The notes beneath the pieces were generated by a model. The model ran no database searches. It had not been told where the DNA came from and was given only the letters and a program-made list of their open reading frames with translations. DNA of 41,910 bases from an uncultured Thermococci archaeon (GTDB lineage Archaea > CAYQAE01 > CAYVLA01). Position 1 is the first letter of the stretch. The number at the start of each line of letters is the position of its first letter. Of this stretch, positions 18,215 through 20,551 are shown one piece after another. Made by a program: the position numbers and the translations under genes. The DNA lies in NCBI GenBank assembly GCA_964549615.1, contig CAZJVP010000045.1:1-41910 (forward strand), read 5' to 3'.

Positions 18215-19723
18215 CTACTTGGCGGCTTTGCGGGCGTTCCATTCTTCGATTGGAACCCCGAGCTTGCTCTCAACCTCGGCCCTGTGGATGGTGTTGTAGC
18301 TGCAGAAGGGTACGATCCTCCCGTCAGGAATCGCGTAGTGGATGGCGCACCTCTTGACCCGTTGCAGGTCGAAATTGAAGGGATCCATGAAGTGCATCGC
18401 GCCGATCATCATCGTCTTGCTGTGGAACTCCCCCAACGAGGAGTAGGTCCCGGAACCGAGTATGCTTAGCAACAGAGACCTGACCTTGAGCTCGGGCGGC
18501 TTCTTCTCCTCGTCGACGAACCTGCCGAACGACCTTGCGATGTTGAGCAGAACACGAGACTTGGTGAGCCTCCCCGGACGGTCGCGGAGCTTGGCTGAGA
18601 CATCGGCCAAGTATCCGAGGAACCCTTCGACATCCACGAAGCGGGTTATCGGAATCTTGGTTCCGCCCGAAACGAAGACGTAGGTGGCGGCCCCGCACGC
18701 CGGATGGCAGGTGAACTCCACCTGGTGTCTCCGGCTCCAAGCAGACACGAACTCAGAGACCGGCGCCACGAAGGGAACCGGATAGAAGTCAGAAGCGCAT
18801 ATCTCCCCCTGCGTCTGCTCCTCAATCCTTTTCAGCACATCGGGGATGGTTATCCTCTGAGCCGCAAGGTCTTTCAAGTCCGTTCGCCCGGTGAAACTTT
18901 CGGGCTGGATGTTCAGAGCCCGGACCACGCCTATGTGTTTCACGCCGAAGTCGATCATGCCGCCCAGCTGATCATCGTTGACGTTCCTGACAAGGGTCGG
19001 CACCAATACGATGCCAAGATGCGCCCTCTCACAGTTCTCGATCGCCTGTATCTTCTGTGGCAGGGCATTGTAGCCTCGGGCGATGAGGTACGGTCTTTCG
19101 GTGACCCCGTCGAACTGGAGGTACACCGTCGAAAGCCCGGCTGCCTTAAGCCTCGCGGCATAGTCCGGATCCTTTGCGAGCAAAACACCGTTCGTGGCGA
19201 CCTGCACCTGGGGAAATCCGACCTCCTTGGCCATCTTCACGATCTCGGGAAAGTCCTCCCGTATAGTCGGCTCCCCGCCGGAGAACTGAACTGCAGGGCA
19301 TGGGAAGGGCCGGTTGCTTCTGAGGTTGAGCAACATCTGCCTGATCTCCTCGATGCTGGGCTCGAGCACGTGGCCGGACTCGGCAGCGTTGGCGAAACAG
19401 ATCGGGCATCTCAGATTACATCTATTCGTGATGTCTATGTTCGCCAACACCGTTGGGGTCTCATGGCTCGGGCAAAGACCGCAATCATACGGACATCCCC
19501 TCTTCGTCTCGGTCCTGGGATTCTCAAGTCGCGGGCCGGACCGCTCGTAGCGCATGAACTTGTTGTACAGCTCGTCGCTCGACCAATAAACATCCTCGAA
19601 CTGACCGTGGTCCCGGCACGACTTCCGGATAAGCAGCCGGCCGTTTTCCGCAACGACCTGGGCATCTATGACTCTCAGGCATGTCGGGCAAAGGCTCTTT
19701 GTCGGGGTCGTCGGATCACCCGT
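18215..19723 (-). CDS. tes: Tetraether lipid synthase Tes (GDGT macrocyclisation radical SAM enzyme); start codon unresolved
   Basis: The frame stays open 56 codons upstream of ATG 19555, encoding TKSLCPTC...KSCRDHG (rubredoxin-like ligands). Then GCPYDCGLCPSH, CNLRCPIC, QFSGGEPT, YLQFDG, HPACG, MHFMD, RCAIHY, PFCSYN. Confidence 0.88.
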   Translation of the reverse strand, partial: TGDPTTPTKSLCPTCLRVIDAQVVAENGRLLIRKSCRDHGQFEDVYWSSDELYNKFMRYERSGPRLENPRTETKRGCPYDCGLCPSHETPTVLANIDITNRCNLRCPICFANAAESGHVLEPSIEEIRQMLLNLRSNRPFPCPAVQFSGGEPTIREDFPEIVKMAKEVGFPQVQVATNGVLLAKDPDYAARLKAAGLSTVYLQFDGVTERPYLIARGYNALPQKIQAIENCERAHLGIVLVPTLVRNVNDDQLGGMIDFGVKHIGVVRALNIQPESFTGRTDLKDLAAQRITIPDVLKRIEEQTQGEICASDFYPVPFVAPVSEFVSAWSRRHQVEFTCHPACGAATYVFVSGGTKIPITRFVDVEGFLGYLADVSAKLRDRPGRLTKSRVLLNIARSFGRFVDEEKKPPELKVRSLLLSILGSGTYSSLGEFHSKTMMIGAMHFMDPFNFDLQRVKRCAIHYAIPDGRIVPFCSYNTIHRAEVESKLGVPIEEWNARKAAK

Positions 19724-20551
19724 TCAAGCATACGATCTTGGATCTAGCCCCCGAATCAGCCTACCATCCTTGAAAACTCTCACGATTCCGCCGCTCTTGG
19801 ACACCGTTATGCCAACCGAGGAGGTTATCTTGGTCATCCCCGCCACCGCGGCGTGTCTCGCCCCCAGCCCCGGCGGTATGTCCACCTCGCTTGCGTCGAC
19901 ATCGAGGTACCTCCCGGCGCATTCGATGACACCCTTGTCCGAGATCACGAAGGCCCCGTCCAGTAAGGAAAAGCTCTTGATGACCTCCTTTATCGAGGGA
20001 TTCAGGACGTTCCGGCTGGCCCTTGGGTGGCCCTTGAACGGATTCAGGATCATCTGGTGCGAGTTCCTCAGAACCCCCTTGGAATCGCCAACGATGAACG
20101 CCGTCCCAATGGGCAATCCCTCCTTGCCCTCCCTGCCAAGCTCAACGGCGATCCTCAGAACCGTCTCAAGCACCTCCATCCCCACCTCCTTGAGGAACGC
20201 AAGTTCCTCCTTCAGGGACTCCTCCACCGGTATGATGTAGATCGTGTCCAGTGCCGAGAATCTCTTGGACACGCAGACGACCGTGTCCCCGACATTGACC
20301 AGCTTCTTGTCGAGGCACTTCATCACGGCGTACTTCGTGGGGCTGGTTGGAGTGATCTCGGGCACGTAGAGCCGCATCGGCTCGTCGACCATTTCTAGGA
20401 GCGAATGCTTGGACGATGCGATGATGCTCCCGTCAATTCCTCTTTCCATGAGCGTCCGTGTGAGCGGCTCGCTATCAACGAAGTAGACCGTCCTCGTGGC
20501 CCTTACCAGGTTTCCAACTTCCCGAGAAACCTGCAGAAGATCGACGTTCAA
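19724..20551 (-). CDS. dacZ: Archaeal diadenylate cyclase (DisA_N/DAC domain, DacZ type)
   Basis: EGKEGLPIGTAFIVGD, LNPFKG, LDGAF, GLGARHAA, VSKSGG. TTG start. Confidence 0.88.
   Translation of the reverse strand: MNVDLLQVSREVGNLVRATRTVYFVDSEPLTRTLMERGIDGSIIASSKHSLLEMVDEPMRLYVPEITPTSPTKYAVMKCLDKKLVNVGDTVVCVSKRFSALDTIYIIPVEESLKEELAFLKEVGMEVLETVLRIAVELGREGKEGLPIGTAFIVGDSKGVLRNSHQMILNPFKGHPRASRNVLNPSIKEVIKSFSLLDGAFVISDKGVIECAGRYLDVDASEVDIPPGLGARHAAVAGMTKITSSVGITVSKSGGIVRVFKDGRLIRGLDPRSYA

Follow-up and report, generated by a model that had tools for sequence, protein, structure and literature searches.

A conserved ACG behind a Shine-Dalgarno site as the candidate start codon of a tetraether synthase gene in a hot-spring archaeon

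Where does translation begin when a reading frame offers no canonical start codon ahead of an indispensable domain? The question is raised by tes, the gene for the radical SAM tetraether synthase Tes (GDGT-MAS), on the minus strand of a 41,910-nucleotide stretch of DNA (the window) that is contig C45 of the metagenome-assembled genome of an uncultured Thermococci archaeon from a hot spring (3.21 Mb, 104 contigs, completeness 99.46; G000 below). For comparison we used the congener G001, which together with G000, G002 and G003 makes up the four family genomes, and a further genome, G004; the class of this archaeon is represented by five genomes in the collection searched. The reading that we favor, with a probability of roughly 0.55, is that tes translation would start at an ACG codon at 19711-19709, behind a strong Shine-Dalgarno (SD) site.

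Directly 5′ of tes lies dacZ, encoding a diadenylate cyclase of 275 aa with a TTG start (19724..20551, minus strand; Pfam DAC PF02457, E 6.5e-18), which ends in TGA at 19726-19724. Behind this stop the tes frame, which shares the phase of dacZ, reads ACG (19723-19721), GGT, GAT, CCG and a second ACG (19711-19709) and reaches its first cysteine codon at TGC 19690-19688, and it contains no ATG, GTG, or TTG for 56 codons, until ATG 19555-19553 (minus strand), which opens an open reading frame (ORF) of 446 aa (18215..19555). If tes started at this ATG, the whole rubredoxin-like domain would be lost. A TTG at 19727-19725 overlaps the dacZ stop and begins a mini-ORF of three codons and 12 bases, TTGAACGGGTGA (19716..19727, minus strand), which is probably incidental, and two homopolymer runs, GGG at 19721-19719 and CCCC at 19707-19704, lie at the junction. 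The first-pass annotation of this locus had described a tes without canonical start, in frame with dacZ behind a single TGA, together with the TTG, the overlapping mini-ORF and the two runs, and these observations and their coordinates are confirmed on the minus strand, including the 56 start-less codons before the ATG.

The 56 start-less codons, which we call the leader, had been proposed to encode the N-terminal rubredoxin-like site of Tes and to be translated, and several lines of evidence bear this out. The leader matches the Pfam family Zn_ribbon_HMPTM (PF23545, E 9.1e-18), and the full translation aligns with chain 7tol_A in phmmer with an E value of 3.8e-176, query residues 4-492 corresponding to chain residues 25-512 and the leader being matched to the N-terminal end of the chain. 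The motif C-X2-C-X20-C-X2-H (CPTC ... CRDH; 19607..19690, minus strand), which is identified from the translation, the PF23545 match, and the 7tol alignment, runs from the cysteine at 19690-19688 to the histidine at 19609-19607 and corresponds to the C9X2C12X20C33X2H36 motif given for GDGT-MAS in the structural paper (PMC9433317). The body of the protein carries the Radical_SAM domain (PF04055, E 8.7e-25) with the CX3CX2C motif as CNLRCPIC, and the auxiliary-cluster cysteine motif CPYDCGLC. On full-length similarity, metal site, and radical SAM motif, the gene is assigned as a Tes/GDGT-MAS radical SAM tetraether synthase. The codon-usage score of the leader is 0.185 versus 0.25 for the gene body, and among the 89 of 2272 crude gene models of G000 that have start-less leaders of at least 56 codons, tes ranks 7th by leader coding score. 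Between G000 and G001, the ratio of non-synonymous to synonymous change (pN/pS) stands at 0.32 for the leader, compared with 0.155 for the gene body; the leader is under purifying selection. Taken with the start-less relatives described below, this ratio argues that the start-less state is inherited and that the leader is translated.

The most prosaic explanation of a missing start codon is an error of sequencing or assembly, or a private mutation: with one extra base between TTG and GAT, or with one C missing from the CCCC run, a normal start would have been obscured. One protein speaks for it, since P0001 (87% identical) starts MTGDPTTPTK, as would be expected, to judge from the protein, with one base fewer after the TTG. 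The Logan assembly of the probable source run, however, contains a 25-kb contig at depth 36 that is identical over 19400-20000 with 0 gaps, a result that, because the contig is built from the same reads, excludes an assembler artefact only. A 246-base contig from a different study and year aligns over 19502-19745 with 10 substitutions and 0 gaps, where indels would count as gaps; two further runs, X2 and X4, contributed no sequence to this stretch. Of the 10 substitutions, the two near the contig ends are unlisted, and of the eight listed, 7 lie in the leader. Read in the Tes frame, five of these seven alter third positions silently, including one only two codons beyond the proposed start, and the other pair replace R by P and K by R. 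Congener G001, at 77% protein identity, likewise has no canonical start between the in-frame TGA and the first cysteine, and it keeps the register from CTG, its counterpart of the TTG, to GAT. An error or private mutation, which had been offered earlier as a 1-nt indel in one of the two runs, is therefore about as improbable as such an explanation can become given the identical Logan assembly, the gap-free foreign contig, and the same start-less layout in G001. The absence of a canonical tes start is real, is not an assembly error, and is old.

What the junction does contain is a site for the ribosome. The 16S rRNA of G000, on contig C46, ends in ...GGATCACCTCCT, and the eight bases GGTGATCC at 19720-19713 are its perfect complement, to which the G at 19721 could add a G-U pair; together they form the SD site GGGTGATCC (19713..19721, minus strand), recognized by complementarity to the 16S 3′ end and by a scan of the genome. 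All nine bases are also present in G001, and GTGATC in G003 and GTGAT in G002 stand in the same register. Since GGGTGATCC complements the 16S rRNA 3′ end, the GGG-TGA and the out-of-frame GTG at this place are explained as letters of the SD. The proposed initiation codon, ACG 19709..19711 (minus strand), follows 7 codons before the first cysteine, and the arrangement of GTGAT, three variable bases (CCG, CCC, CAC, TAC), and ACG is invariant in G000-G003 while the flanks vary.

The spacing between this SD and the ACG was compared with that of other genes. We scanned G000 for matches of at least 6 bases to the template AGGAGGTGATCC situated just 5′ of coding ORFs that have an in-frame stop close by, which retained 370 of 14,539 matches (357 once merged), and the position of a codon on the scale of the template is given as its aligned index. 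The raw spacing from motif to ATG over the whole genome reflected codon periodicity only, and the SD signal emerged once the scan was limited to gene starts. Canonical starts behind an SD in G000 peak at index 13-15 (37 at 13, 41 at 14, and 34 at 15), and the tes ACG stands at 13, which is also the commonest index (12 of 33) when the SD-preceded canonical Tes starts of other archaea are considered. Relatives place a canonical start at this very codon: a methionine occurs exactly at the ACG position in P0004 (MRTTKSVC...) and P0006 (MKITKSVC...), the codon is ATG in G004, and in Methanocaldococcus jannaschii Tes the methionine is 8 codons before the first cysteine. No canonical start before an indispensable domain, a canonical start of relatives at the same position, and the right SD spacing are what would be looked for in a near-cognate start, and tes shows all three.

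In the mechanism that we propose, tes would be cotranscribed with dacZ, GGGTGATCC would position the ribosome at ACG 19711-19709, and this ACG would serve as a near-cognate start that is decoded as methionine by the initiator tRNA, with ribosomes terminating at the dacZ stop 12 bases upstream possibly assisting. The coding sequence as proposed spans 18215..19711 (minus strand, stop included), and the predicted product is a Tes of 498 aa in which the first cysteine is residue 8 and the N-terminus is one residue shorter than that of the crystallized M. jannaschii enzyme. That this ACG is the codon actually used, and that sufficient protein results, is what we infer.

Initiation at an ACG had been among the options of the first-pass annotation, which named the other ACG, at 19723-19721 right after the dacZ stop. 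That option comes close to our reading and differs in the codon: the conserved and well-spaced ACG is four codons downstream, and the first one is GCG in G001, GTG in G003, and GGA in G002, so that no near-cognate codon is conserved there. The first ACG also lies upstream of the SD, at aligned index 1, with no other SD seen in the preceding bases. Termination-reinitiation at it would have the attraction of zero distance to the dacZ stop, as archaeal reinitiation is best at very short distances according to a study of such pairs (PMC10666635); the proposed ACG of a TrkA-like gene (see below) also stands directly behind a TGA, and P0001 starts one codon earlier, with MTGD. We consider it improbable that tes initiates there.

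A more elaborate possibility, and the first of those previously put forward, is a programmed +1 frameshift, in which the ribosome would start at TTG 19727, read TTG AAC GGG, stall on UGA, slip from GGG to GGU, and continue as MNG-DPTT.... The layout of TTG, GGG, and TGA is indeed present, the slip would preserve two base pairs, and both tRNA-Gly(CCC) and tRNA-Gly(UCC) were detected; moreover, GGGTGAT is common to G000 and G001. In G001, however, the segment before GGGTGAT is two bases shorter, the TTG is replaced by CTG, and dacZ, which there ends ...CTG AGC GGG TGA, is itself the zero frame, so that the same slip would yield a DacZ-Tes fusion in G001 and a three-codon leader in G000, that is, different products from the two congeners. 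Nor is a zero-frame ORF with its own start conserved, and G002 and G003 require no shift. TTG 19727 has no SD of its own, and the only SD-like sequence coincides in part with the supposed shift site rather than preceding it. The fold of 19740-19640 shows no unusual RNA structure (z -0.14), an Rfam search over 19300-20100 was empty up to E 1, none of the other near-cognate genes in G000 calls for a frameshift, and a +1 frameshift has yet to be demonstrated in any archaeal cellular gene according to a recoding review (PMC8211752). We regard a slip at GGG-UGA as unlikely, and GGGTGATCC is better read as an SD.

Readthrough of the dacZ UGA would fuse the two proteins into one. It is suggested by the phase of dacZ and tes with a single TGA between them and by their adjacency in all four family genomes (L002-L005), where dacZ lies directly 5′ of tes at a distance of 4-16 bases. 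Near the other 105 Tes loci (L006-L110) a DacZ match turned up once, in L043, about 1.7 kb upstream of its tes. The phase is not conserved, as dacZ is in another frame relative to tes in G001, so the in-frame TGA in G000 is a coincidence, and readthrough of the same TGA in G001 would instead append a short, unrelated peptide upstream. Among the stops of G000, TGA is used most often (524 of 1103 long genes), and no tRNA-Sec was among the 26 tRNAs that aragorn found, an incomplete set. No DAC domain was present in 54 longer Tes relatives or in the 120 near-length relatives listed of 4068 hits; a DacZ-Tes fusion, at about 777 aa, would belong to the latter class. The earlier suggestion of readthrough thus finds so little in its favor, with dacZ out of frame in G001 and TGA the ordinary stop, that we rate it very improbable. 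The 54 longer relatives are all intein-bearing or fused to other domains. Many of the Tes homologues P0121-P0166, of about 900-1700 aa, carry intein or homing-endonuclease domains (PF14528, PF14890), and NCBI gives the cluster entries of P0157 and P0160 the name intein-containing Tes; intein-bearing Tes was therefore already known.

A wider view is given by Tes loci of other archaea. We examined 109 loci, of which 79 come from metagenomes, 29 from genomes, and one, L002, is that of the window; two were dropped with an uncovered N-terminus. A metagenome scan for close relatives matched at least 599 stretches, of which 80 were retained, none above about 60% identity, so that the close relatives seen at the protein level were not among them. 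A canonical start before the first cysteine is missing in five of the remaining 107: G000, G001, L006 (G029:C15), L032, and L057, the last two on metagenome contigs. Each of the five has exactly one combination of SD and near-cognate candidate, the codon, at index 13 or 15, being ACG in four of them and CTG in the fifth; in L006, L032, and L057, which belong to unrelated archaea, the codons are ACG, ACG, and CTG, all at index 15, behind AGGAGG, AGGTGA, and GGTGAT.

Several observations weigh against an ACG start in tes. In all five start-less loci, the +2 frame likewise contains a canonical start that opens a short ORF stopping just upstream of the conserved part, which is the layout that a +1 shift would use, and these ORFs formally keep a +1 mechanism alive; the codons before their stops are GGG, GGG, CAT, AAA, and GTC, with no common slippery property, and CAT and GTC would be unable to re-pair in +1. 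ACG makes up 40% of the threonine codons in G000, so that, given a conserved threonine, a coincidental identity of the codon in four relatives has a probability of about 6%. Canonical in-frame starts stand upstream in G003 (GTG, 11 codons before the cysteine) and G002 (TTG, 19 codons), and the MTGDPTTPTK terminus of P0001 implies one upstream of the ACG position as well; in these three the ACG may be a plain threonine codon, and the residues upstream of it can be translated. In Escherichia coli, ACG falls in a class of codons initiating at about 0.1-1% of AUG (bioRxiv 10.1101/063800), and the recoding review reports archaeal non-canonical events as shown at elongation and termination only (PMC8211752). 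The gene models of G000 are crude, with a codon-usage score in place of a trained gene finder, and the comparison of G000 with a single control archaeon described below is suggestive only, as the control differs in G+C.

It might also be supposed that tes has no single defined start, with traces of Tes made from several weak codons, or that the gene is decaying in the genus. The weakness of ACG where its initiation has been measured (bioRxiv 10.1101/063800) would fit, as would the loss of a canonical Tes start in the 5 of 107 loci, spread over about four lineages of unrelated archaea. The purifying selection on the leader (pN/pS 0.32) and the synonymous nature of 5 of the 7 listed within-species changes speak against decay, as does the survival of the start-less state since the G000-G001 split; moreover, the SD, 8-9 bases long, is kept in both genomes. 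We therefore find this account rather unlikely, and defined initiation at ACG 19711-19709 continues to be our preferred explanation.

Is tes alone in this? Several other genes in G000 seem to begin at unusual codons. Among 102 gene-start sites with an SD of at least 7 bases, a canonical start occurs at index 10-18 in 56, and in 18 the interval between the upstream stop and index 45 contains none. Half of these 18 carry CTG, ACG, ATT, ATA, or ATC at index 13-15, a frequency to be compared with 12% at control positions (binomial 9e-5). Pfam domains were found in seven of the nine near-cognate genes, six of which, besides tes, were compared with relatives. The TrkA-like gene (G000:C30:43511-44197, minus strand; L111) has ACG at index 14 behind the SD GAGGTGAT and directly after an in-frame ATG-TGA pair, and the corresponding codon of its orthologues (L120-L123) is ATG, GTG, TTG, and ATG in G001, G003, G002, and G004, respectively. 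An OppF-like ABC ATPase (G000:C97:195-1175, minus strand; L112) has CTG at the SD-aligned start, kept as CTG in G001 and G003, and its start-less leader, 102 codons long, already includes the Walker A motif. An MtrH-like methyltransferase (G000:C100:13017-13934, plus strand; L113) has CTG at a position occupied by TTG or ATG in five homologues, and in neither this gene nor the OppF-like one does a canonical start precede the conserved N-terminus.

The gene for the initiation factor aIF2-gamma (G000:C88:84822-86063, minus strand; L117) has ATA at index 13 behind the SD AGGAGGT, with no canonical start before the G domain; the same codon is ATC in G001 (L124), ATA in G003 (L125) and G002 (L126), and ATG in G004 (L127), and residue 10 of aIF2-gamma, counted from the ATA, aligns with residue 9 of the Pyrococcus abyssi aIF2-gamma structure. 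A DeoC-like gene of G000 has ATT at the start position, where G002 has ATG. The oligosaccharyltransferase gene AglB/STT3 (G000:C43:1256-3226, minus strand; L116) lacks a canonical start and carries ACG at SD index 13, and its relatives in G001 and G002 (L138, L139) keep this ACG plus an in-frame GTG three codons upstream, which has been lost in G000 through a one-base length difference, G000 being the shorter. Candidate near-cognate starts were further noted for a signal-peptide protein on contig C48 (CTG) and for a nucleotidyltransferase on contig C40; for an ABC-2 permease with a putative ATT start no counterpart was found in G001-G004. In the control archaeon G006, which is unrelated (1.2 of 1.47 Mb, G+C 42%), sites with an SD of at least 7 bases include 1 near-cognate and 57 canonical starts, compared with 9 and 56 in G000 (Fisher p 0.019).

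These cases, namely the Tes ACG in four genomes, the OppF-like CUG, and the aIF2-gamma AUA/AUC, the last again considered over four genomes, raise the speculative idea, which we hold as doubtful but deserving of mention, that this little-sampled family runs a relaxed or tunable start-codon stringency, in which a few conserved genes would stay on near-cognate starts preceded by very strong SD sites, with an autoregulatory loop of aIF2-gamma. If this were so, the making of tetraether lipids would be linked, through this loop, to the condition of the initiation machinery as well as to the translation of dacZ. Loss of aIF1/SUI1 as a cause of relaxed stringency was considered separately and rejected, the gene being present in all five genomes of the class.

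The start of tes has a practical consequence. The stored call for the window Tes (P0003) is 410 aa long and begins at an internal TTG further in than ATG 19555, and calls starting downstream of the first cysteine occur in 12 of 16 close relatives (P0002-P0003 and P0007-P0016, with the window's own included; 11 of the 15 others). Gene callers thus shorten this Tes to 446 or 410 residues and drop the metal-binding domain, and surveys of tetraether capacity that use full-length models or N-terminal motifs will mis-score such genomes. Archaeal initiation at ACG, CUG, or AUA is so far undemonstrated, to judge from the recoding review (PMC8211752). A literature search on ACG and other non-canonical archaeal start codons met with no description of an archaeal ACG start, and a search for the tes start codon in titles and abstracts returned nothing on that codon. 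Tes would offer a conserved and selectable candidate case in a well-understood enzyme, and with the parallel cases, including aIF2-gamma, it supplies constructs for testing the stringency of archaeal start-codon selection.

Near-cognate starts are known in bacteria and eukaryotes; bacterial infC uses AUU, and rare CUG and AUA starts occur, whereas ACG is, to our knowledge, not among the start codons of NCBI table 11. The proposed tes start resembles bacterial near-cognate genes such as infC in having a conserved codon other than AUG, GUG, or UUG at the orthologous start behind an SD, and in its low intrinsic efficiency, but the tes codon is ACG, the host is an archaeon, and no regulatory loop is known. 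The putative ATA/ATC start of aIF2-gamma in turn recalls the AUU start of infC, which belongs to an initiation-factor loop. The +1 programmed frameshift of prfB (RF2) takes place at CUU-UGA with an SD-like sequence 3 bases upstream, and we know of no counterpart of the RF2 feedback logic in archaea. The tes junction shares with prfB an A-site stop behind a codon capable of re-pairing in +1 and an SD-like sequence nearby, and it differs in that the SD overlaps the site and the zero-frame ORF is not conserved, being opened by TTG in G000 and having CTG within dacZ in G001. The dacZ-tes distance of 4-16 bases falls within the coupling range of archaeal termination-reinitiation pairs, as a spacing of 13-14 nt retains about 40-60% coupling in Haloferax, although the known cases restart at canonical codons and are mostly -4 or -1 overlaps (PMC10666635). 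The closest counterpart of the protein itself is the GDGT-MAS/Tes of M. jannaschii (7tol, 7tom; PMC9433317), which belongs to the same family and has the same C-X2-C-X20-C-X2-H, CX3CX2C, and CPYDCGLC motifs; what sets the present gene apart is its start codon and its dacZ neighbor, which is specific to the family genomes here.

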